This document shows positions 13,253 through 57,637 of a stretch of DNA of 64,000 bases, piece by piece; positions within the stretch are counted from its first letter, which is position 1; every line of letters starts with the position of its first letter. The notes beneath the pieces are model-generated. The model had not been told where the DNA came from and searched no databases. It was given only the letters and a program-made list of their open reading frames with translations. The stretch covers positions 94,209-158,208 of the forward strand of contig CAWEKC010000001.1 of assembly GCA_963809665.1 (NCBI GenBank), given 5' to 3'. A program made the position numbers and the translations under genes. Source of the DNA: Candidatus Gottesmanbacteria bacterium. Its GTDB lineage: Bacteria > Patescibacteriota > Microgenomatia > UBA10105 > UBA927.

Positions 13253-14012
13253 TTTTCCCCATAAACACTTCCGTCGTGCCGTGCATCCGGAGAATAAAAT
13301 ATTCGTGTTTCAGAAGCGGATTAGTCCGTAGCGACAGGAACCGGTTTACATCTTCCTGTTGGGAAACGTGCGACAGCAGTGCTTTCTTTTTGGCACTACC
13401 GAATTTCATAATGTTTATAACGGTGGTAATATTTTTATCCGGTGTTCCCCGCCAGGGTTTGCCGAACGATTCGGCCGGCAACGTTTTCTTTTTCTGCAAA
13501 TACCGGGCAACGGATTCGGGCATACAGGCATAATAAAGTTTGGGAAACAGCTGTACGGATACTTCCTGATCTTTTAACTGCTCTTCAATCCATGCCGCAT
13601 ATTTCTGGAATGCATATGTGGTTACAAAACACATTTTAATATGGTCAGGGTGATTGCTTATGCCGATTGTGTCCATGGTCACGACCGTGTCCGGCACCAG
13701 TTCTTCCATTTTTTTGTACACTGTATCTTCCAACTCTCCGGGAGTCAGGCTGGACAACGCTGCGTCCCTGTATCCCAAAAACGTAATAGAGTTAATGCCG
13801 AGGGTACTCCCCGCTTTTTGCAGTTCTTTCTGCCGGATATCACCCAATTGGTTTTGGTTAATATCCATGAATGGCCCGTGGCTCCCTTCCTCCCCCCGTG
13901 TGGCGCAGATAAGATCTACTTTCCATCCGGCTGCGACGTATTTTGCAACGGTTCCCCCGCAACTGAAAGACTCATCGTCCGGATGCGCAAAAACCAGTAA
14001 CAAGCGTTTCAT
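13227..14012 (-). CDS. PIG-L/LmbE family N-acetylglucosaminyl deacetylase
   Basis: N-terminal VFAHPDDESFSCGGTVAKY (AHPDDE zinc-binding motif), HPDH further on. Overlaps sufC start by 26 nt. Confidence 0.8.
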   Translation of the reverse strand: MKRLLLVFAHPDDESFSCGGTVAKYVAAGWKVDLICATRGEEGSHGPFMDINQNQLGDIRQKELQKAGSTLGINSITFLGYRDAALSSLTPGELEDTVYKKMEELVPDTVVTMDTIGISNHPDHIKMCFVTTYAFQKYAAWIEEQLKDQEVSVQLFPKLYYACMPESVARYLQKKKTLPAESFGKPWRGTPDKNITTVINIMKFGSAKKKALLSHVSQQEDVNRFLSLRTNPLLKHEYFILRMHGTTEVFMGKNDHVTNSL

Positions 14013-25182: not shown

Positions 25183-26184
25183 ATGTTTCGTTCAGCCCGT
25201 ATTAAATTAACAGCCTGGTATCTCCTGATTATCATGCTCGTGAGCGTGTCTTTTAGTGCGGCTATTTTCCGCGTCCTTACGACTGAATTGGACCGCATCG
25301 TGCAGGTTGAAAGATTAGAGCTGGAACATAGATTTCCTCAATTTCCTATTTTATTAAATCCTGATCTCCTGGCAGAGACAAAACAACGTCTTTTATTCAG
25401 ACTCGTGGTTATAAATTTGCTGATTTTAGCCGGATCGGCATGGGCCGGCTATTTACTCGCAGGACGCACATTAAATCCAATCAAAGATATGGTTGACGAA
25501 CAAAACCGTTTCATTACCGACGCGTCTCATGAACTGCGCACACCACTCACATCCCTCAAATCCGAAATTGAAGTGAATTTGCGGGACAAGAACCTTTCAC
25601 TCGACCAGGCAAAAAATTTACTCAAAAGTAATCTCGAAGAAGTGAATTCCCTTCAGGTTTTATCCGACGGTCTTATCCGGCTGACGCAATATCAAAAAGG
25701 GCACAGCAATTTGTCAATTGATGATGTGTCCCTTGCCGATGTTTCACGGGAAGCCGTCCGTAAAGTGACAAACGCCGCCAAAGAAAAAAAGATAACGATT
25801 GTCAATGACATCCCCTCTGCCCATATTCAGGGAAATCAAACCGCCCTGATTGAACTGCTCGTTATCTTTTTGGATAATGCGATAAAATACAGCCCGAAAC
25901 AAAGTCCGGTCCGGTTATCCAGTAAAAAGTCAGACGGCCGCATCCGTATCGTCATCGCCGATGGCGGTATCGGGATTGCCGAAAAAGATGTCCCGCATCT
26001 TTTTGACCGTTTTTACCGCGCTGATAAATCAAGAACGAAAACTGACGTATCAGGCTATGGATTGGGACTGTCTATCGCAAAACAAATTGTAGACCAGCAT
26101 AACGGAAGTATACGGGTAACAAGTAAATTCAATAAAGGCACAACGTTCACGATAGAACTTCCGCTAAAACATCATGACCTCTAA
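25183..26184 (+). CDS. sensor histidine kinase (HisKA + HATPase_c)
   Basis: H-box ASHELRTPLTSL, G-boxes DGGIGIAEKD and GYGLGLSIAKQIV. N-terminal TM, short sensor region. Confidence 0.85.
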   Translation: MFRSARIKLTAWYLLIIMLVSVSFSAAIFRVLTTELDRIVQVERLELEHRFPQFPILLNPDLLAETKQRLLFRLVVINLLILAGSAWAGYLLAGRTLNPIKDMVDEQNRFITDASHELRTPLTSLKSEIEVNLRDKNLSLDQAKNLLKSNLEEVNSLQVLSDGLIRLTQYQKGHSNLSIDDVSLADVSREAVRKVTNAAKEKKITIVNDIPSAHIQGNQTALIELLVIFLDNAIKYSPKQSPVRLSSKKSDGRIRIVIADGGIGIAEKDVPHLFDRFYRADKSRTKTDVSGYGLGLSIAKQIVDQHNGSIRVTSKFNKGTTFTIELPLKHHDL

Positions 26185-29004: not shown

Positions 29005-29078
29005 TGCGGGATCGTATAATGGTAGTACGCATCCCTCTGGAGGATGTTATCTTGGTTCGAATCCAAGTCCCGCAGCCA
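29005..29078 (+). tRNA. tRNA-Gln (anticodon CTG)
   Basis: 74 nt with encoded CCA. Acceptor TGCGGGA/TCCCGCA (U1-A72, discriminator G73, as in bacterial tRNA-Gln). D-stem CGTA/TACG, anticodon stem CATCC/GGATG with loop CTCTGGA (U33, anticodon CUG), T-arm CTTGG-TTCGAAT-CCAAG. Confidence 0.85.
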
Positions 29079-29132
29079 TTCGGCTCCTAACATTCGCTCA
29101 TGATCAGGGTCAGTTATGTACATGATCCTGGT

Positions 29133-29699
29133 CTATGAAAATTCTTTGGATTCAGACAACTTTCTTCTCATTAACTCGTCTCTGATTTTGTCCCGTTTCT
29201 TCATTAATATGGAATAATCGGTATCTGATAACCACAAACGCCGGTCATTATTTTTAGAGGTACGGTATTGAATCAGATCTTGGGCAGCATCACGAAGATC
29301 AGGATCATTATTTCTGACTAAGGATATCAAAATTTCATCACTATCGAGACTTTTCCATTCATCTATAAAACTAAAAATTTTACTTAATGCATACTTTAAT
29401 TCATTTCTTCTGTCAGATATTTGTTGCATCTTCTCTGTATTATTATGTTTCTTTACCCTTTTATATTTATTTCTTAGATGTTCTAATTCATAAAAAATAT
29501 TTTCTTTCATTTGATCCGCTTGTTTTTCAGACGAGATATCCACCAAAATATTATCCTGATAAGTGGGCAACCGCTTAAAAGTATCAATGATATTTGGTAA
29601 TTCTCCCCCAGACCGTATTAACCATCTTTCAAACAAATCGTTATTATTTCTTGCTGTTCTTTTAGAATTGTCACTAATAAAAGTTTCTGTTCTTGGCAT
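29133..29699 (-). CDS. hypothetical protein in AT-rich islet (188 aa, charged/helical)
   Basis: ORF in a region of about 30-33% GC against about 50% background. No recognisable motif. Lys/Glu/Asp/Arg-rich. Confidence 0.4.
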   Translation of the reverse strand: MPRTETFISDNSKRTARNNNDLFERWLIRSGGELPNIIDTFKRLPTYQDNILVDISSEKQADQMKENIFYELEHLRNKYKRVKKHNNTEKMQQISDRRNELKYALSKIFSFIDEWKSLDSDEILISLVRNNDPDLRDAAQDLIQYRTSKNNDRRLWLSDTDYSILMKKRDKIRDELMRRKLSESKEFS

Positions 29700-29840
29700 A
29701 TTATTAAATCTACCTACGTGGGTATTCTACAATAAATACTCATCAAAATCCTCAAGTTATATATAAAAGTCCTAATATAGTTCGAGCAGTTTAGCCAAAG
29801 AAAGACTTGACTCTAACCTCTTAAAGATATAAAAGGGCAA

Positions 29841-30077
29841 ATGAATCAAGAAACAGGTAATTCATCTTCAACCGACCAAATAGAAATACAATCACATAAA
29901 GAATTCCGAGAGTATATTAAAAAATCACAGGACAATAAACTTGGTCATCTAGTGAGGATTGTCGTAATGGACGAATTAGCCTTGCTAGCGGAAGATTTAA
30001 TAGAAAACGGGTCAGAACCTTCATCGGTTTATAAATCTTTTATAAAGATAGCAGGAACACTAATAGAACGGCTCTAG
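29841..30077 (+). CDS. hypothetical small acidic protein in AT-rich islet (78 aa)
   Basis: TTGACT-15nt-TATAAA promoter-like upstream at about 29806-29832. 3' end overlaps the CPBP-like gene on the other strand by 18 nt. Confidence 0.35.
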   Translation: MNQETGNSSSTDQIEIQSHKEFREYIKKSQDNKLGHLVRIVVMDELALLAEDLIENGSEPSSVYKSFIKIAGTLIERL

Positions 30078-30686
30078 AAACTTCAATCGGGCGACAAGGC
30101 GGTTGTCCGGGTGGACGAGGCAATAATACAGAGCGCCGAGGAATGCATGTGACAGACTTTGCCAGAGAAGATTCCCGTACGTCATAAACGTCCATATCCA
30201 TACTGTGCCGGCCATTAGACTGAAAATAGTCAGTTTTATCGTGTCCCTCGGCGGGTGGGCCAAACCGAAAAACGAAATCCCAAGCAAAAACACAAGCACT
30301 CTGCTTGCAATAAGCGATGAAAGCGTATTGAGAAATATATATTGAAAAAATATCTGCTGCAAAAAAGCAAACGGGACATAGAGTACAAATAATGTCAGAA
30401 AAAATACGGGATTGAATTTTCTTTGTTTCACTCTGAAAAAAATTACCAGAAGAAATCCGACAATGGTAAATACCAGATGTATGATGCCCGACATCAAAAG
30501 TGTTTCCGGCACATACAGCTTAAACGTAACCTCTTTAAGATATAGTATTGTTAACAAAAGCGCTGATAATCCGAATATTATTATTAAAATCCCGTTTATG
30601 CTGTCATAATTCTTCGTCCGGGTATAGACAATGAGGGTACTAATACAGAGGATCAAAATAAGTGCGTTCAGATACATAAGGTACAC
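30060..30686 (-). CDS. CPBP (CAAX protease/Abi)-like intramembrane protein (tentative)
   Basis: 208 aa, 6 or more TM. ISFFGLAH (FxxxH-type motif) and SLSHAFLGALYY (H-containing motif 3-like). No clear EExxxR motif 1. About 35% GC. Confidence 0.35.
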   Translation of the reverse strand: MYLMYLNALILILCISTLIVYTRTKNYDSINGILIIIFGLSALLLTILYLKEVTFKLYVPETLLMSGIIHLVFTIVGFLLVIFFRVKQRKFNPVFFLTLFVLYVPFAFLQQIFFQYIFLNTLSSLIASRVLVFLLGISFFGLAHPPRDTIKLTIFSLMAGTVWIWTFMTYGNLLWQSLSHAFLGALYYCLVHPDNRLVARLKFLEPFY

Positions 30687-30728
30687 AGTATATCAGATTT
30701 GAAGCCCCGGCCGTGCTACAATGCAGGT

Positions 30729-31688
30729 ATGCTTGTAGATAACATTACCCTCACGGTTAAGGCAGGAAACGGCGGAGCGGGCTCAGCGTCGCTCCTGCAT
30801 AACGGCCAGACCCGCAAAGGCGGTCCGGATGGCGGCAACGGAGGCGCAGGCGGAAACATCTACTTTGTAGGTTCCACGAATATCAACGATCTACGGGAGT
30901 TCCGATACACGAAAATTATCAAAGCAAAACACGGCGGTGACGGGGCACGGCAAAAAAAGAACGGGAAAAAAGCGGAAGATGTTCTGACTCTCATCCCTCT
31001 GGGTACAAAAATTACTGACATCAAAACCAACGCTTCCATTGAGATTACCGAAATCGGCAAACAGGTGTTGATTGCACAGGGCGGGCGGGGAGGCCGCGGA
31101 AATGTTAATTTTAAAAGCTCCGTAAACCAGACGCCTATGACCGCAGAAAAGGGAGAACCCGGTCAGGAACGTGAACTTCTTCTGGAACTGCGCCTCATTG
31201 CGGAAATAGGGCTCATCGGATTGCCGAACGCCGGTAAAAGCAGTCTTCTTACTGTATTGACCAATGCCCATCCCACGGTAGCTGCATACCCGTTTACCAC
31301 CCTTGACCCCACAATCGGTATGCTGGGTAATCACCCTATAGCTGATATTCCCGGGCTTATTGAGGGCGCGTCAAAAGGGAAAGGGCTTGGGATAGATTTC
31401 CTCAGACATATCGAGAAAACAAAAATACTTTTGCACTGCATTGACGTAAACCATGACGATCCTCTGGGCGCGTATAAAACAATCCGGGAAGAATTTAAAC
31501 AATTTGATCCCGCACTACTTGCGAAACCGGAATATATCGTATTAACGAAAATCGATTTGACTGATGCGGATAGAATAAAAAGGGTTACAAGACTCTTTAC
31601 CGGTGAAAAGAAACAGGTATTTATATGTTCTGTGTACGACCCCAAAAGTATAGAAGCGCTCAAAAAAACGCTCGTGAGTCTCATATGA
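30729..31688 (+). CDS. obg: GTPase Obg/CgtA
   Basis: MLVDNITLTVKAGNGGAGSASLLHNGQTRKGGPDGGNGGAGGNIYF Obg fold. G1 GLIGLPNAGKSSLL, G4 LTKID. The track ORF starts at TTG 30699; ATG 30729 fits the Obg N-terminus. Confidence 0.9.
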   Translation: MLVDNITLTVKAGNGGAGSASLLHNGQTRKGGPDGGNGGAGGNIYFVGSTNINDLREFRYTKIIKAKHGGDGARQKKNGKKAEDVLTLIPLGTKITDIKTNASIEITEIGKQVLIAQGGRGGRGNVNFKSSVNQTPMTAEKGEPGQERELLLELRLIAEIGLIGLPNAGKSSLLTVLTNAHPTVAAYPFTTLDPTIGMLGNHPIADIPGLIEGASKGKGLGIDFLRHIEKTKILLHCIDVNHDDPLGAYKTIREEFKQFDPALLAKPEYIVLTKIDLTDADRIKRVTRLFTGEKKQVFICSVYDPKSIEALKKTLVSLI

Positions 31689-32134
31689 AAATTTCCCGTA
31701 TCAGAAAAGAACCGCGGATTCCATTCACTAAAGAAGGCTATCAAAAATTATTGGATGACCGGAAAAAATTTCTTGATGCACGGCCGGAGGCTGTCAAGAA
31801 TCTCTCGGAATCCCGTGCGATGGGTGACTTATCGGAAAACGGCTACTACAAAGCGTCCCGTCAGCAGCTTTCATTTTTGGACTCCCGTATACGGCGGGTG
31901 GAGCGGCTCATTAAGCTTGCCAAAATAATTGAACCGACACGCGTAAAGCTTACTGACGGTACAAAAGAATATGACTACGAAATTGTCGGGGGATATGAAT
32001 CCGATCCGGTCAAACATACAATTTCCCAGCAATCCCCTTTGGGCCGGGCAATTTCAGGGAAGAAAGCCGGTGACGTCGTGGAAGTCATCACCCCCGGCGG
32101 AATAAAAAAATTTACAGTTCTTTTAGTTTCTTAA
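31685..32134 (+). CDS. greA: GreA/GreB family transcription elongation factor
   Basis: Start MKISRIRKEPRIPFTKEGYQKL overlapping obg stop (ATGA). Coiled-coil N-domain, C-terminal FKBP-like domain (YDYEIVGGYESDPVKHTIS..SPLGRAI). Confidence 0.8.
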   Translation: MKISRIRKEPRIPFTKEGYQKLLDDRKKFLDARPEAVKNLSESRAMGDLSENGYYKASRQQLSFLDSRIRRVERLIKLAKIIEPTRVKLTDGTKEYDYEIVGGYESDPVKHTISQQSPLGRAISGKKAGDVVEVITPGGIKKFTVLLVS

Positions 32135-32925
32135 TCCGGTAGCCTGAGTATCCCCTTTTTCCGTTCAACTAATCCGTCTTTTATCAATCCATTAATAACG
32201 CACATGGAAAAATCATGTAAGATAGTATCTTCTTTGACGGGACCTTTGCGTAACAAATCAATTAACCTGCCCCTAAAATATCTGTTGGTTTCTTTAAACG
32301 GAATTGTTGATTTTTTTACCCTTTTTTTTATTTTTAATTTCGGCATTTCAATAGATCCGTAATCCATTAAAGCCTGATGCCATTCCCAGGATTCATCCAT
32401 AGGAACCAGTTTATCCGCAACTCCCTGAATAATTTTATCTTTCTGCGGAACGTCTCTGAAAAAGAAATGCGTAATAATCTGCCTGATATTTGTATCAACC
32501 GCAGCGATATCCTTTTTAAAAGCAAACACAAGAATTGCCCTGGAAGTATATTTCCCCAGACCCGGCAGAGACATAAGTTCTTTCTCGCTATCCGGAAACT
32601 TTCCGTTATACATATCAACAATATTCTGCGCTGCCTTTTTCAGATACAGCGCGCGCCGGTTATAGCCCATCCCCTTCCATACTTTCAGTATTTTCGCCGC
32701 GCTGGCCCGGGCAAGGGTGTACACGTCGGGGAAAAAATACAGGAATTCTTCGTATTTGGGAAGTACCCGCGAAACCTGCGTCTGCTGGAGCATAACCTCC
32801 GATACAAGAATCCTGTACGGATCATGCGTGTGACGCCACGGCAAATTGCGTTTATTGAGTTCCCACCAGGAAAAAATATGCTCCTGAAACTTTATAATCC
32901 GCCCGCCATTCATACTTCGGCCCAT
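32131..32925 (-). CDS. HhH-GPD family DNA glycosylase, MutY/Nth-like N-terminus, without Fe-S cluster cysteines
   Basis: FSWWELNKRNLPWRHTHDPYRILVSEVMLQQTQV (MutY/EndoIII-like), HhH LPGLGKYTSRAILVFAF, VDTNIRQ. Only one Cys in the whole protein, so no Cx6Cx2Cx5C [4Fe-4S] loop. Confidence 0.65.
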   Translation of the reverse strand: MGRSMNGGRIIKFQEHIFSWWELNKRNLPWRHTHDPYRILVSEVMLQQTQVSRVLPKYEEFLYFFPDVYTLARASAAKILKVWKGMGYNRRALYLKKAAQNIVDMYNGKFPDSEKELMSLPGLGKYTSRAILVFAFKKDIAAVDTNIRQIITHFFFRDVPQKDKIIQGVADKLVPMDESWEWHQALMDYGSIEMPKLKIKKRVKKSTIPFKETNRYFRGRLIDLLRKGPVKEDTILHDFSMCVINGLIKDGLVERKKGILRLPD

Positions 32926-35214: not shown

Positions 35215-36267
35215 ATGGCAACACTGACTCAAACCGCTTATTTTGCCCGCCGCACGATAAATTGGGGAATCATCGCAATCATCGCCTATATACTCATGCG
35301 TATTTTCTGGAGTATTTTCATTGCGGTATTTTTGCTTATATTCCCCCCGAAGGCCCCGCCGCCCAATCACGCATTCGATAAACTGCCAGTCCTCGTATTT
35401 CCGCTGCAGGCAACCCCATCGGCAGCACTAACGTTTCAATTACAGACAATCGAAGGTACTGTTCCCAAAGCTTCTGAATCCGCAACCGTGTATCTCATGC
35501 CAAAAACGGCACCGAATCTCCTCGGACTTAACACGGCGCAGGATTTTGCATCCGGATTTGATTTTGACCCCACTCCTGTGCAGGAAACCAAGAATATCTA
35601 CCGGTTTAATGATGCTAAGCTTCCGCTGAGGAGATTACGATACGATATTGTATCCAATAACTTTATTATCCGTTATGGCTACGAACAGGATCCGTCTGTT
35701 TTTAACGGAAAAAATCTCCCGCTACCGGATGACGGGACACGTGAGGCAATTAATTTACTTCAATCTCATAACTTGTATCAGACTGACCTTGCAGGCGGGA
35801 CAAATCAGATATTATTTCTGAGGTTAAACGGAACGCAGTTGATTGGTACGACAAGTCTTTCCCAGGCAGATGCTGAACGTATAGACTTCTTCCGGAAGCC
35901 AATCGAAGACACTCAGGTGCTCACCCCATACGCAGATGAGGCTCCGGTATCCATTATATACAGCGGCTCAACCGATACAAAAAAACGGATTATCCAGTTC
36001 GCCTATACATTTTGGCCGATTGATTATCAAACAACGGCAACATATGCACTGAAAACAAGTAACCAGGCCTGGGAAGAACTGCAAAGCGGAAACGGATATA
36101 TCGTACGGTATCCCACAAGCGGAAATGTCGCCGTTATCCGGAATGTATACCTTGCGTACTACGATTCATTTGATCCGCAAACGTATCTGCAGCCTATTTT
36201 TGTGTTTGACGGGGATAACGGGTTCCGTGCGTACGTGCCCGCAGTTTCTTCATCCTGGATTCTGTAG
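35215..36267 (+). CDS. hypothetical membrane-anchored extracytoplasmic protein
   Basis: 350 aa. N-terminal TM (WGIIAIIAYILMRIFWSIFIAVFLLIF). No recognised motif. Confidence 0.45.
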   Translation: MATLTQTAYFARRTINWGIIAIIAYILMRIFWSIFIAVFLLIFPPKAPPPNHAFDKLPVLVFPLQATPSAALTFQLQTIEGTVPKASESATVYLMPKTAPNLLGLNTAQDFASGFDFDPTPVQETKNIYRFNDAKLPLRRLRYDIVSNNFIIRYGYEQDPSVFNGKNLPLPDDGTREAINLLQSHNLYQTDLAGGTNQILFLRLNGTQLIGTTSLSQADAERIDFFRKPIEDTQVLTPYADEAPVSIIYSGSTDTKKRIIQFAYTFWPIDYQTTATYALKTSNQAWEELQSGNGYIVRYPTSGNVAVIRNVYLAYYDSFDPQTYLQPIFVFDGDNGFRAYVPAVSSSWIL

Positions 36268-40249: not shown

Positions 40250-41596
40250 ACCAGCTATAATAGCAGTATGATCCCGTTACCTCAATCTGCCAAACATATC
40301 ATAGATACTCTTACTAAAGCCGGCTATCAGGCATACGCAGTCGGAGGATCCGTACGGGATATACTCATGACCAGGCCGACTCATGGATGGGATTTTACCA
40401 CCAATGCGGCGCCGGAAGAGATTCTTAAACTGTTCCCCGACAGTTTTTACGATAACAAGTTCGGAACCGTCGGAATTAAATTACCCGGGGATATTTATGA
40501 AATTACGACGTACCGGAGTGAAAAGGGGTATACCGACCATCGCCACCCGGACAATATCCGGTGGGGTAAATCGCTTGAAGAGGATCTTTCACGCAGGGAC
40601 TTCACCATAAACGCAATTGCCTTTGACGGTAAGTCTTTCATTGACCCCTATCACGGCCAGGAAGATCTCGCCGGTAAACTCGTACGTGCGGTCGGAGAGC
40701 CGGAGAAACGTATCGAAGAAGACGCCCTCAGAATGATGAGGTCGGTCCGTATTGCATCTGAACTGGGTTTCATGATTGAACCAGAAACTCTGAAAGCAAT
40801 TAAAACGAATGCGCATCTTATCCGAGACATTTCCGCTGAACGGATCCGTGATGAACTTCTGCGGATCCTTGCGTCCCCTTTTGCTGCCGACGGGATTTTA
40901 CTTCTCAAACAGACGGACCTGTTGAAAATTATCATTCCTGAACTGAACGCTGCGTTCGACGTCGGTCAGAAAAGTCCGGCCCGGCATCATATCTATGACG
41001 TGGGAACTCACAGTGTCATGGCCATGAAACTTTGCCCCTCCAAAGACCCGATTATCCGTCTTGCAACCCTTTTGCACGATATCGGAAAGGTACCGACATA
41101 TAAAGTGGACGAAAAAGGAATCATCACATTTTATAACCATGAAATGGTCAGTACAAAACTGGCAAAAGGAATACTTTCCCGCCTGCGGTTCAGCAGGAAG
41201 CAAACGGAAAAAATTCTTACGCTTATCCGGTGGCACCAGTTTACCGTTGACGAACGGCAGACCGATTCGGCTCTCCGCAGGTTTATCCGGCATGTTGGGA
41301 AAGAAAACCTTCCTGATATGCTGGCGCTTAGGACCGGCGACCGGCTCGGAGGCGGAGCCGCGGAGACATCATGGCGTATGGAACTGTTCAAGAAACGTCT
41401 TGAGGAAGTCCAGAAACAACCGTTCACCGTCGCAGACCTGAAAATAGACGGTTTCGACGTCATGAAAACCCTCAACGTCAAACCCGGGCCGATCGTCGGT
41501 AAAACACTCACTGAAATATTTGCCGAAGTTGAAGCGGGAAAACTTAAAAACGAACGGGGCGCATTACTTACGCGACTAACGGATATACATCCATAA
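40223..41596 (+). CDS. cca: CCA tRNA nucleotidyltransferase (class II, with HD domain)
   Basis: AYAVGGSVRDILMTRPTHGWDFTTNA head domain, RDFTINA, HD motif LLHDIGK. Start may be the internal ATG at 40268 (MIPLPQ), which would remove the overlap with recJ. Confidence 0.8.
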   Translation: MQNMPLLLHTSYNSSMIPLPQSAKHIIDTLTKAGYQAYAVGGSVRDILMTRPTHGWDFTTNAAPEEILKLFPDSFYDNKFGTVGIKLPGDIYEITTYRSEKGYTDHRHPDNIRWGKSLEEDLSRRDFTINAIAFDGKSFIDPYHGQEDLAGKLVRAVGEPEKRIEEDALRMMRSVRIASELGFMIEPETLKAIKTNAHLIRDISAERIRDELLRILASPFAADGILLLKQTDLLKIIIPELNAAFDVGQKSPARHHIYDVGTHSVMAMKLCPSKDPIIRLATLLHDIGKVPTYKVDEKGIITFYNHEMVSTKLAKGILSRLRFSRKQTEKILTLIRWHQFTVDERQTDSALRRFIRHVGKENLPDMLALRTGDRLGGGAAETSWRMELFKKRLEEVQKQPFTVADLKIDGFDVMKTLNVKPGPIVGKTLTEIFAEVEAGKLKNERGALLTRLTDIHP

Positions 41597-41888
41597 CCAC
41601 TTCCTCGTAGGGATGCACACGTTTAACCGCTGTGAGTATTTTTTTCAAATCTTTTTTATAACAAACCATTTCTATTCGTTCCTCTGCTACCTCCTCTAAT
41701 TTTCCTGTTTTTCCAATAGTAGGGTGTGCTCCGGGCAGAGGAAAAAATCTTCCCGTTCCTTTCACGGAGAAACTACAGTGAGCATAGTTTCCGACCCGCC
41801 CCGCACCGGCTTTTCCCATTGCATCCCGAACAAAATCTGCGTGCGTCTCAGGTACGAACACAACAATTTTTACTGTTTCATTTTCCAT
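41568..41888 (-). CDS. small PII/CutA-like fold protein (COG3323/NIF3-insert-like), hypothetical
   Basis: 106 aa. KIVVFVPETHADFVRDAMGKAGAG...VKRVHPYEEVVMDVYPL resembles the standalone PII-like domain family. Overlaps cca 3' end by 29 nt. Confidence 0.4.
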   Translation of the reverse strand: MENETVKIVVFVPETHADFVRDAMGKAGAGRVGNYAHCSFSVKGTGRFFPLPGAHPTIGKTGKLEEVAEERIEMVCYKKDLKKILTAVKRVHPYEEVVMDVYPLVA

Positions 41889-56433: not shown

Positions 56434-56910
56434 TTACTCTTGTTCGTCAATGAGCTTTCGGATTATTTCGAAGTCAAATCCCCTCCGGCCCAGATAGTCG
56501 TATAGCTTCTTCTTACGCGCCATTGGCGGTAATTTACGCCATAGAGGCATCTTCTTAGCAATAGCATGCCTGGCAGCCTCCAAGAGGCTTACAGAGCCTC
56601 GTGAGGCCAGCGCCGTCGCTATCACGGCATCGGGAACACCCTTACCTCGCAGCTCCATCTGAATATACCGGTTTCCCTTGGGCTTAAACTCGGTCCGCTG
56701 GGCTACCCACCACTCCGCAAACTTTACATCATCTGCGTACCCCAACTCCTCCATCCGACCCATAACTTTAGCCAGTAGTCCGGCGCCGGAGACCTTCCAT
56801 CGGGTAAGTTTCTTGTTCAGGAAGTCGGTAAGCTCTTTTTTGCTACGGGGACGGAAAGACACATACCTAATCGCGGCATTGACAAGAAGTTCATAGTACG
56901 GATTATCCAT
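56434..56910 (-). CDS. recX: RecA regulator RecX
   Basis: 158 aa with three-helix repeat pattern: RSKKELTDFLNKKL, MGRMEELGYADDVKFAEWWV, IQMELRGKGVPDAVIATAL, KLYDYLGRRGFDFEII. Confidence 0.7.
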   Translation of the reverse strand: MDNPYYELLVNAAIRYVSFRPRSKKELTDFLNKKLTRWKVSGAGLLAKVMGRMEELGYADDVKFAEWWVAQRTEFKPKGNRYIQMELRGKGVPDAVIATALASRGSVSLLEAARHAIAKKMPLWRKLPPMARKKKLYDYLGRRGFDFEIIRKLIDEQE

Positions 56911-57535
56911 GGAGTGTTTTTATAATGTTAGGGAGCTCTTTAAACGACGATACATAACCATCCGGGTTGCCAACCGGTGTTTTGGAACAGATAATAACTT
57001 TCATTTTTGCAGCTTTTGCCGCTTGAATATCGCTTTCCATATCACCGATGTACACGGCATCTTGCGGTTTTACGTTAAGCTGGTGCGCGGCAAATGTCAA
57101 AGGTTCCGGATGCGGCTTGTGGTTCACCGTATCTTCGTATGCAATCACAGTAGAAAAATATTGTTGCAATGCCGCCAACTTTGAAAATTCAAATACACCG
57201 TTCTTTATCCTGCTCGTGACAATTCCCAATGGATATTTTTTATGAAGTTTTTTTAATGTTTCAATTACACCGGTATGTAATTTTAGTAAATGAAGCGGAT
57301 AAGGAACTATGCGTTTGCTACCCATTTTCCAAATCCTTTGAATTTCTATTTCAGAACGGGATTTGGTAACTTGTTTGATAACTTCTGTCAGCGTTAAATG
57401 ATACATCCCACTATACATTTCTCTTGTGAGAGGTTCATATCCTGCCTTAGAAAATAGATCTTGACAGAATTTCAAATTCGCATTAAAAGAATCTATGAGA
57501 ACGCCATCAATATCAAATAATATAGCCTTAATCAT
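56903..57535 (-). CDS. HAD-IA family hydrolase (phosphoglycolate phosphatase/beta-PGM-like)
   Basis: MIKAILFDIDGVLIDS (motif I), IVTSR (motif II), GDMESDIQAAKAAK (motif IV). Confidence 0.8.
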   Translation of the reverse strand: MIKAILFDIDGVLIDSFNANLKFCQDLFSKAGYEPLTREMYSGMYHLTLTEVIKQVTKSRSEIEIQRIWKMGSKRIVPYPLHLLKLHTGVIETLKKLHKKYPLGIVTSRIKNGVFEFSKLAALQQYFSTVIAYEDTVNHKPHPEPLTFAAHQLNVKPQDAVYIGDMESDIQAAKAAKMKVIICSKTPVGNPDGYVSSFKELPNIIKTLHG

Positions 57536-57560: not shown

Positions 57561-57637
57561 TGGTCGGGGTGGGCAGACTTGAACTGCCAACCGCTCGCAC
57601 CCCATGCGAGTGCGCTAGCCAATTGCGCCACACCCCG
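57561..57637 (-). tRNA. tRNA-Pro (anticodon GGG)
   Basis: Reverse complement is CGGGGTG-TG-GCGC-AATTGGCTA-GCGC-A-CTCGC-ATGGGGT-GCGAG-CGGTT-GGCAG-TTCAAGT-CTGCC-CACCCCG-A-CCA. C1-G72, G37 and A73 are typical of tRNA-Pro. 77 nt with encoded CCA. Confidence 0.85.

Follow-up and report, generated by a model that had tools for sequence, protein, structure and literature searches.

Many hotspots of horizontal gene transfer (HGT) carry no recognisable mobile element and show recombination in the core genes that border them; a study of such mobile-element-free hotspots reports raised homologous recombination in these flanking genes (Oliveira, Touchon, Cury and Rocha 2017, Nat Commun 8:841; PMC5635113). 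Here we describe a locus that resembles them, in a stretch of 64,000 nucleotides (nt) from an uncultivated Candidatus Gottesmanbacteria bacterium (contig CAWEKC010000001.1, positions 94,209 to 158,208; hereafter the window). Judging by sample names such as 'Hain-H41-01um' and by the gene content, the organism may be an ultra-small groundwater bacterium. Directly 3′ of the tRNA-Gln(CTG) gene of the window lie two small open reading frames (ORFs), genes A and B, followed by a gene for a CPBP-like membrane protein (gene C) and by obg. It is likely that the region ~29079-30079, which comprises A and B, is a ~1-kb horizontally acquired patch in an integrase-less hotspot 3′ of tRNA-Gln. As in the published hotspots, the interval is narrow and bordered by conserved genes (tRNA-Gln on one side and the CPBP/obg block on the other); what it contains varies between relatives, its accessory genes are of foreign composition, and it has no integrase, transposase or prophage. 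It differs from them in that it is tiny (0 to ~1 kb, with one or two single-gene units), in that it belongs to an uncultivated organism, and in that at least one border, the one between B and the CPBP gene, is an illegitimate joint that altered the C-terminus of a resident protein.

Two other known systems share features with this locus. Like the islands linked to tRNA genes, the insert starts at a tRNA 3′ end, is foreign in composition and is variably present, and 3 of 16 relatives have repeats resembling attachment (att) sites at this tRNA. The window differs from such islands in lacking an integrase, a direct repeat and mobility genes, in its size of ~1 kb, and in that its genes appear to have been acquired at different times. 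Phage morons are genes that stand singly between resident ones, each with a promoter and a terminator of its own and with deviant GC content. A (~620 nt) and B (~280 nt) are likewise units running from a promoter region to the stop codon, which recur with the same limits and have deviant composition; the host molecule, however, is a chromosome and not a prophage, and homologues are absent from phage and viral collections. The locus is otherwise ordinary: HGT is well known to leave small AT-rich islets next to tRNA genes, and no new mechanism is indicated. What it provides is a clean and small case of turnover at a tRNA flank without a mobility gene in an uncultivated lineage, with three states of the slot in three close relatives.

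The base composition delimits the patch. When calculated in 500-nt segments, the GC content of the 64 kb has a mean of 0.471 (standard deviation 0.038), and its deepest trough, 0.290, is at 29301-29800. The preliminary description of this DNA had pointed out the drop in GC after tRNA-Gln(CTG), and this was confirmed: GC is 0.356 across 29079-30690, directly 3′ of the tRNA gene. It had taken the trough as one low-GC islet of ~1.6 kb and as horizontally acquired throughout. The trough is real, but it consists of two parts. The first one, 29079-30079, has 32.9% GC, and the GC content at third codon positions (GC3) is 0.28 in both A and B. The CPBP part (30080-30690) has 40% GC and a GC3 of 0.48, level with the rest of the genome (obg 0.48, greA 0.46, era 0.50, gltX 0.47), and its low GC is attributable to the hydrophobic amino-acid content of the encoded protein. 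Since GC3 splits the trough in two, the foreign DNA is limited to ~29079-30079, and the claim of horizontal acquisition stands for A and B (by their GC3, their absence from relatives and their homologues elsewhere) but not for the CPBP gene. Among the ~70 ORFs called in the window, GC3 is 0.40-0.59, with the exception of A, B, a 106-amino acid (aa) ORF at 41568-41888 (0.36) and a gene for a HAD hydrolase (0.34). A further low-GC stretch, at 62.6-63.2 kb, is no anomaly of this kind; it simply carries rpsM, rpmJ and infA.

The state of the slot was compared in two close relatives of the window, L005 (Logan SRR21721003) and L006 (Logan SRR22388351), both with ~84% nucleotide identity to it. L005 is 83-85% identical over the glycosylase gene, greA and the CPBP gene, and both A and B are absent; a few nt (about 9-11) separate the CPBP stop codon from the end of tRNA-Gln. 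In L006, an ORF of 244 aa starts with an ATG one base past the end of tRNA-Gln (CCA), and is followed by B (81%) and the 3′ end of the CPBP gene. L006 is therefore without A, and a different gene, not an empty site, is found in its place. This 244-aa ORF has a GC3 of 0.27 and encodes Cys/His motifs; a match to HNH_5 was not significant (E = 0.046), PADLOC gave E = 0.0034, and there was no match in the PDB. It is grouped here with the defence-like contents of the slot and was not assignable to a family. The window order itself (glycosylase, greA, obg, CPBP, B) is repeated in an independent Logan contig from ERR12037368. This 3,380-bp contig seems to end near the border between A and B, as estimated from gene lengths; the source sample could thus contain strains that differ at the slot.

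The borders of the patch are as follows. On the left, where the tRNA-Gln gene is the fixed limit of the slot, foreign sequence begins at 29077-29079, directly after the discriminator base and CCA. On the right, the junction between B and the CPBP gene reads TAGAA/ACTTCA, at ~30079/30080. The window, L006 and L007, a contig with B in another context, have the sequence in common up to TAGAA, and the window, L006 and L005 share it from ACTTCA on. At this joint, which has a 2-3 nt microhomology, the last five codons and the stop codon of the CPBP gene are antisense to the 3′ end of B and encode LEPFY in the window and LKSMY in L006. The C-terminus is FRKR in L005, and LEER, LRTG, LGNS, LRIG or LGNNQ in other homologues. 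We conclude from these alignments that the border between B and the CPBP gene is an illegitimate joint, and that the insertion of B would have clipped the CPBP C-terminus, so that one insertion joint rewrote the end of the neighbouring gene. Because B is common to the window and L006, and A is not, A and B have separate histories; the patch thus appears to be made of two unrelated single-gene units, acquired separately and placed back to back. The preliminary description had A and B as convergent, which is wrong: they are divergent, and it is B and the CPBP gene that are convergent, with an 18-nt overlap.

Table 1. Features of the tRNA-Gln region (window coordinates) and gene order in the three states of the slot.
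Feature	Coordinates	Strand	Basis or remark
tRNA-Gln(CTG)	29005..29078	+	ARAGORN; Rfam tRNA 60.2 bits; encoded CCA at 29076-29078
Spacer from tRNA to gene A stop codon	29079..29132	+	no counterpart in L005, L006
Gene A, 188 aa	29133..29699	-	ORF
Divergent A-B intergenic region, 141 nt between starts	29700..29840	.	upstream region of each gene, conserved
Gene B, 78 aa	29841..30077	+	ORF; unit ~29796 to ~30079
Gene C, CPBP/Rce1-like, 208 aa	30060..30686	-	Pfam PF02517; probable start 30677, giving 205 aa
obg	30729..31688	+	Pfam GTP1_OBG, E = 9e-47
greA	31685-32134		conserved core neighbourhood of tRNA-Gln, clade-wide
HhH-GPD glycosylase gene	32131-32925	-	conserved core neighbourhood of tRNA-Gln, clade-wide
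Slot in L005			tRNA-Gln, CPBP, greA, glycosylase
Slot in L006			tRNA-Gln, 244-aa ORF, B, CPBP
Slot in the window			tRNA-Gln, A, B, CPBP, obg, greA, glycosylase

Gene A has an overall GC content of 0.31 and codes for a soluble, basic protein of 22.7 kDa (isoelectric point, pI, 9.2) predicted to contain helices only. When 1.84 billion representative proteins were searched exhaustively with HMMER, only a family of nine full-length relatives was identified, with lengths of 182-190 aa and matching near end-to-end; the exception is the window's own entry, a 125-aa fragment. The invariant residues of the family include D21, L22, R25, W26, F111, W115, P133, M177 and R179. The AlphaFold2 model (predicted local distance difference test score, pLDDT, 77) has a helical bundle at residues 58-187. 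Confidence is low for the first 51 residues of the model, although the best-conserved motif of the family, DDLFERWLxRxGG, is found there; this motif, predicted to be disordered, would suit docking onto a partner.

The homologue of A in L001, a 334-kb contig of the European Nucleotide Archive (ENA), codes for protein P0001 and shows 83% nucleotide and 75% amino-acid identity to A. With a ratio of nonsynonymous to synonymous substitution rates (dN/dS) of 0.23 and a dS of 0.58 in this comparison, A is a real gene under purifying selection. The conserved unit consists of the ORF plus ~56 nt upstream: the 83% identity to L001 extends over 617 nt (window 29140-29755) and the homology stops at 29755. 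In L001 the gene is located between HAD-hydrolase and acetyltransferase genes, a context unrelated to that of the window, and 20 kb of sequence there contain no tRNA. The syntenic core proteins of L001 and the window (DUF4446, DUF3048, SecD and others) are only ~35-58% identical; given 83% nucleotide identity against 35-58% amino-acid identity of the core, gene A can be used to trace gene flow between the two lineages. A 39%-identical member in L008 is found in another context again. GC3 around the A homologues is 0.28-0.37 in L001 and 0.29-0.41 in L008, and there the genes match the local composition. The donors of both A and B were most likely lower-GC relatives of the same broad clade.

No match to gene A was obtained in PADLOC, PHROGs or NCBIfam, nor above cut-off in Pfam; likewise, there was none in BFVD below E 0.001, and none when the family alignment was used in a profile search of GTDB genome contigs. 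No record exists for the 125-aa fragment of A, or for the Obg protein of the window in its exact sequence. The Pfam families LemA (17.7 bits, against a cut-off of 26.2), PCRF and DUF1198 were considered and discarded, as the matches are sub-threshold and inconsistent across the nine members. The ribosomal protein uS15 was also discarded: the PDB profile match is weak (E = 0.017), and hhalign against Escherichia coli S15 gave 6% probability.

Gene B codes for an acidic protein of 8.8 kDa (pI 5.05) with three predicted helices (AlphaFold2 model, pLDDT 78). Besides its own database entry it has two homologues, one 81% identical and at the same place in L006, and the other 68% identical and in a different context in L007. 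There, B comes after a GDSL-lipase gene and is followed by a different gene; the GC3 of L007 is 0.28-0.30, so that B matches the local composition. The B unit (~29796-30079) has 77.5% nucleotide identity to L007. With a dN/dS of 0.25-0.33, B too is a real gene under purifying selection. The start of the B unit is put at ~29796-29803: the homology upstream of B begins at 29796 in the comparison with L006 and at 29801 in that with L007. Within it, TTGACT (29807-29812) and TATAAA (29828-29833), separated by 15 nt, are kept in all three B loci; they are promoter-like by sequence only, and were not called by a consensus scan that requires a 16-18 nt spacing. The TATAAA ends 7 nt ahead of the ATG. 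The B mRNA may be leaderless; alternatively, a longer transcript may use an AAGGG located 4 nt upstream of the ATG for ribosome binding.

Gene B had no match in PADLOC, PHROGs, NCBIfam or Pfam. In the PDB profile search, a designed PPR repeat protein reached E = 4.5e-5; it was rejected because no single stretch passes by itself, and the score is regarded as inflated by the repeated helical hairpin. Both A and B are absent from the viral contigs searched and, by tblastn, from GenBank phages. The two ORFs had been described as orphans. This holds in so far as neither belongs to a known family, but A is part of a nine-member family and B has two homologues. The ORFs pass coding tests (dN/dS 0.23-0.33), and the close relatives differ from the window in the three-gene content at this place, two points on which the preliminary description had made its reading depend.

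The third gene of the trough is a resident gene that forms the right border of the slot and lies outside the acquired DNA. We consider it resident because its codon composition is native (GC3 0.48) and because it is kept at the same place in close relatives: in L005 an 88%-identical orthologue (dN/dS 0.10) directly abuts tRNA-Gln, and the gene is also present in L006. Its tentative assignment as a CPBP/Abi-like membrane protein was borne out, if narrowly: the match to PF02517 (Rce1-like) has 24.9 bits against a gathering cut-off of 22.4 (E = 2.5e-5) and spans residues 95-183 on profile positions 4-90 of 93, and the homologues carry the same precomputed Pfam match. In a Kyte-Doolittle scan, residues 1-141 contain at least 5 segments of strong hydrophobicity; another two, with the His motifs, were judged by eye from the sequence. 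A search of the PDB with the CPBP profile gave no match.

The conserved motifs of the family are present in part. In the stretch PFAFLQQIFFQY (residues 104-112 of the 205-aa protein), Q107, Q108 and Q112 are invariant in 7 sequences, so that all seven members of the subfamily have QQIFFQ where the catalytic EExxxR is expected; the placement of QQIFFQ as motif 1 follows from the pattern around it and from its distance to motifs 2 and 3. The FxxxH motif is present and invariant (F137-G-L-A-H141). H177 is also invariant; the residues after it are AFLG or AxLA, and position +4 is neither Asn nor Asp. The protein thus resembles the PF02517 (Abi) family in its gathering score, its multi-pass topology and its FGLAH and second His, and differs from it in having QQIFFQ where EExxxR is expected and HAFLG for HxxxN, and in being encoded by a resident gene unlinked to any bacteriocin or toxin gene. 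It is probably not an active glutamate-dependent protease. The subfamily looks like a conserved non-catalytic branch, of the kind that APH-1 represents. The annotation of the locus is corrected accordingly by the notes above on composition and residence: ~1 kb and two genes are foreign, and the CPBP-like gene is resident and probably inactive as a protease.

CPBP homologues with 59-65% identity are placed elsewhere; in L002 an S9-type peptidase gene is found close by, as it is in the window. Hence, the adjacency of the CPBP and tRNA-Gln genes in the window would have arisen by a genus-specific rearrangement. In L003 (6157-6855), a convergent tRNA-Glu(TTC) gene is located 15 nt past the CPBP stop codon. 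In L026 (1169-3484), three extra genes follow the CPBP gene, and they are absent there from the 84%-identical L002. The 3′ flank of the CPBP gene would appear to be unstable in other lineages as well.

The wider clade was examined through an exact scan of Joint Genome Institute (JGI) metagenomes, which yielded 16 loci carrying an identical 48-nt 3′ part of the tRNA (29029-29076); L005 carries it too. The core proteins of these loci are ~55-65% identical to those of the window, and in every locus divergence begins straight after GCAGC. On the 5′ side of tRNA-Gln, obg, greA and the glycosylase gene recur, the set being partial or full in L010, L013, L023 and L024; in the last three, obg is divergent and directly adjoins tRNA-Gln. 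On the 3′ side, the 16 loci have 14 different gene sets (L013 and L023 share one, as do L021 and L025), and the first 3′ genes are often low in GC3 relative to their neighbours. These 14 flanks indicate that the slot 3′ of tRNA-Gln has long been variable. In L010 it contains a TIR-like effector gene (PADLOC E = 1.5e-8) and, farther downstream, a gene of the metallo-beta-lactamase fold, and in L019 a gene for a HEPN pEK499_p136 protein, followed by a DUF4160 gene; the other flanks code for methyltransferases, a serine hydrolase and proteins without a family match. In none of the 16 distant loci were A, B or the CPBP gene found next to tRNA-Gln.

In three of the 16 loci the end of the tRNA is repeated. 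L016 has a 24-nt repeat of the tRNA-Gln 3′ end, whose two copies enclose 136 nt and are 160 nt apart from start to start; L014 (259-312) has a 14-nt repeat with 26 nt between the copies, and L011 (940-1047) a degenerate copy of the 3′ half of tRNA-Gln. These repeats may be the footprints of excised elements, or miniature integrative elements. In L016 (oriented 13499-13682), each copy of the repeat has its own hairpin after it.

In the window, no sign of such an element was detected. The integrase and the repeat of the tRNA 3′ end that the preliminary description had not seen were not found on search either. There is no tRNA 3′-end repeat in the 64 kb (23-mer with up to 3 mismatches, 12-mer with up to 1, 20-mer with up to 4), and the local alignment of the 45-nt 3′ half of the tRNA within the window scores no better than shuffled sequence. 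Pfam annotation of nearly all ORFs between ~20.5 and 38.6 kb, which covers ~8 kb to each side, revealed housekeeping or unrelated genes only and no integrase, transposase or phage gene; the exceptions are a HisKA-type kinase gene (25183-26184), era and gltX, for which the names come from sequence or tblastn alone. There was no Pfam hit for A, B or an ORF of 350 aa (35215-36267). The Rfam scan returned only the tRNA. No attC-like structure was found, and the ends of the units share no imperfect inverted repeat. An integron gene cassette was rejected, since A and B have their own upstream promoter-like regions and there is neither an attC-like repeat nor an integrase. An 18-nt direct repeat (29814-29831 and 30527-30544) is attributed to chance, as it is not conserved in L006 or L007, and a 15-nt inverted repeat (29452-29466 and 29827-29841) was also dismissed as chance.

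How A and B entered can be reconstructed from the states of the slot. B would have come first, inserted at the 3′ end of the CPBP gene, where it replaced the last codons before the window and L006 split. The gap between the tRNA and B would then have been filled separately in the two lineages: in the window by A, in L006 by the 244-aa Cys/His ORF. As the route of entry we favour DNA uptake followed by recombination anchored in the invariant tRNA, with an illegitimate, microhomology-based joint at the other end. This route would correspond to homology-facilitated illegitimate recombination, or flank-mediated replacement; the former is described (PMC3240628) as combining homology at one end with an illegitimate joint at the other. 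The main alternative would be the integration of a tRNA-targeting element (a prophage, satellite or island) that has since decayed; deletions would have removed its integrase and distal att repeat, and one of them would have trimmed the CPBP gene at its 3′ end. That proposal concerns the entry only, and A and B would still be foreign. The insert does start exactly where the tRNA ends on its 3′ side, direct repeats of the tRNA-Gln 3′ end, which are classic att footprints, are found just downstream in three of the 16 relatives, and the slot in relatives includes defence-like genes typical of mobile-element cargo. We nevertheless think it unlikely, though within reach: the window lacks both the integrase and the repeat within the limits given above, inspection of ORFs and partial Pfam annotation revealed no integrase beside the tRNA in the 16 loci, no viral contig carries the 23-mer of the tRNA-Gln 3′ end, A or B, and the sharing of B, and not of A, with L006 argues that the two were not delivered as one element.

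It is highly improbable, on the other hand, that A and B are ancestral in this lineage and have disappeared from L005 and L006, with a GC content lowered by amino-acid content or relaxed selection. Small genomes do lose genes readily, and B is at the same junction in the window and in L006. The anomaly, however, is at synonymous positions (GC3 0.28, against 0.40-0.59 nearly everywhere else), A has 83% nucleotide identity (dS 0.58) to a gene of a genome with core proteins that are no more than 35-58% identical, none of the distant loci has the genes next to tRNA-Gln, and L006 has another gene in the place of A rather than an empty site. Several points weigh against acquisition through an integrase-less hotspot, which we prefer. 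The att-like repeats in three of the 16 relatives imply that site-specific integration does operate at tRNA-Gln in this clade. The homologues of A and B in L001, L007 and L008 are not beside a tRNA, so that a tRNA anchor cannot explain all the moves. The donor lineages are deduced from GC3 only, the entry mechanism is a reconstruction, and the polarity (insertion of B as opposed to its deletion in L005) is a matter of parsimony and composition. Furthermore, L005, L006 and L007 are automatic assemblies of 1.3-1.8 kb, in any one of which a chimeric join is possible. Finally, a defence or toxin role for A and B is conceivable.

Such a role had been proposed for the three genes together, as a toxin/immunity or anti-phage cassette in which the CPBP protein would be the immunity or effector membrane component. 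CPBP/Abi-family proteins act in bacteriocin self-immunity in other bacteria, the slot in relatives is sometimes defence-like (the TIR-like gene of L010 and the HEPN gene of L019), and A is basic and B acidic. Yet the three genes occur independently: the CPBP gene is found without A and B in L005, L002, L003 and L026, A alone in L001 and L008, and B without A in L006 and L007. They are on alternating strands with separate upstream regions, A and B match nothing in PADLOC, PHROGs, Pfam or NCBIfam, the CPBP gene is native in composition, and its product has QQxxxQ at the place expected for the catalytic EExxxR. Nor do A and B look like a toxin-antitoxin pair, as they are neither co-oriented nor always co-occurring, and show no similarity to a known toxin, antitoxin or immunity family. 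With the CPBP gene resident, the idea of an immunity partner is left without support, and we regard a cassette as very unlikely.

Since neither A nor B has a conserved partner gene, they act alone and not as a pair. As a guess made with low confidence, they could be small accessory binding or regulatory proteins. A more far-reaching proposal, which we consider doubtful, is that they represent new stand-alone accessory functions (in defence, counter-defence or host interaction) that spread as promoter-to-stop units, integrase-free and tRNA-anchored; in that event, tRNA 3′ flanks may be general landing pads among small-genome uncultivated bacteria.

The obg gene also differs between the close relatives. 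In the window it is located between the CPBP gene and greA (30686-31735), and it is missing from this place in L005 (1024-1100), where the CPBP gene and greA (at 625-1056 and 1101-1715) are 44 nt apart; the blocks aligned by blastn are ~59 nt apart. The window and L005 appear, by eye, to share a TACAAT-type upstream sequence. The absence of obg from this place in L005 means that the gene for an essential GTPase has moved between species that are ~84% identical.

In the spacer between tRNA-Gln and gene A, RNA folding predicted a plus-strand hairpin at ~29098-29138 (-20.3 kcal/mol, z = -3.2); on the minus strand the same region reaches only -12 kcal/mol (z = -0.6). This hairpin may be a terminator of the tRNA transcript. 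The sole other tRNA gene of the window, tRNA-Pro(GGG) at 57561-57637 on the minus strand, was called by ARAGORN and is not reported at the Rfam gathering threshold. Directly 3′ of it is a low-GC3 gene, for the 210-aa HAD hydrolase noted above (56903-57535, GC 0.37, GC3 0.34), which overlaps the start of recX. A kinship with the HAD gene that neighbours the A homologue in L001 was rejected, the two being unrelated at 22% identity. The HAD gene beside tRNA-Pro may be a second acquisition at a tRNA flank.

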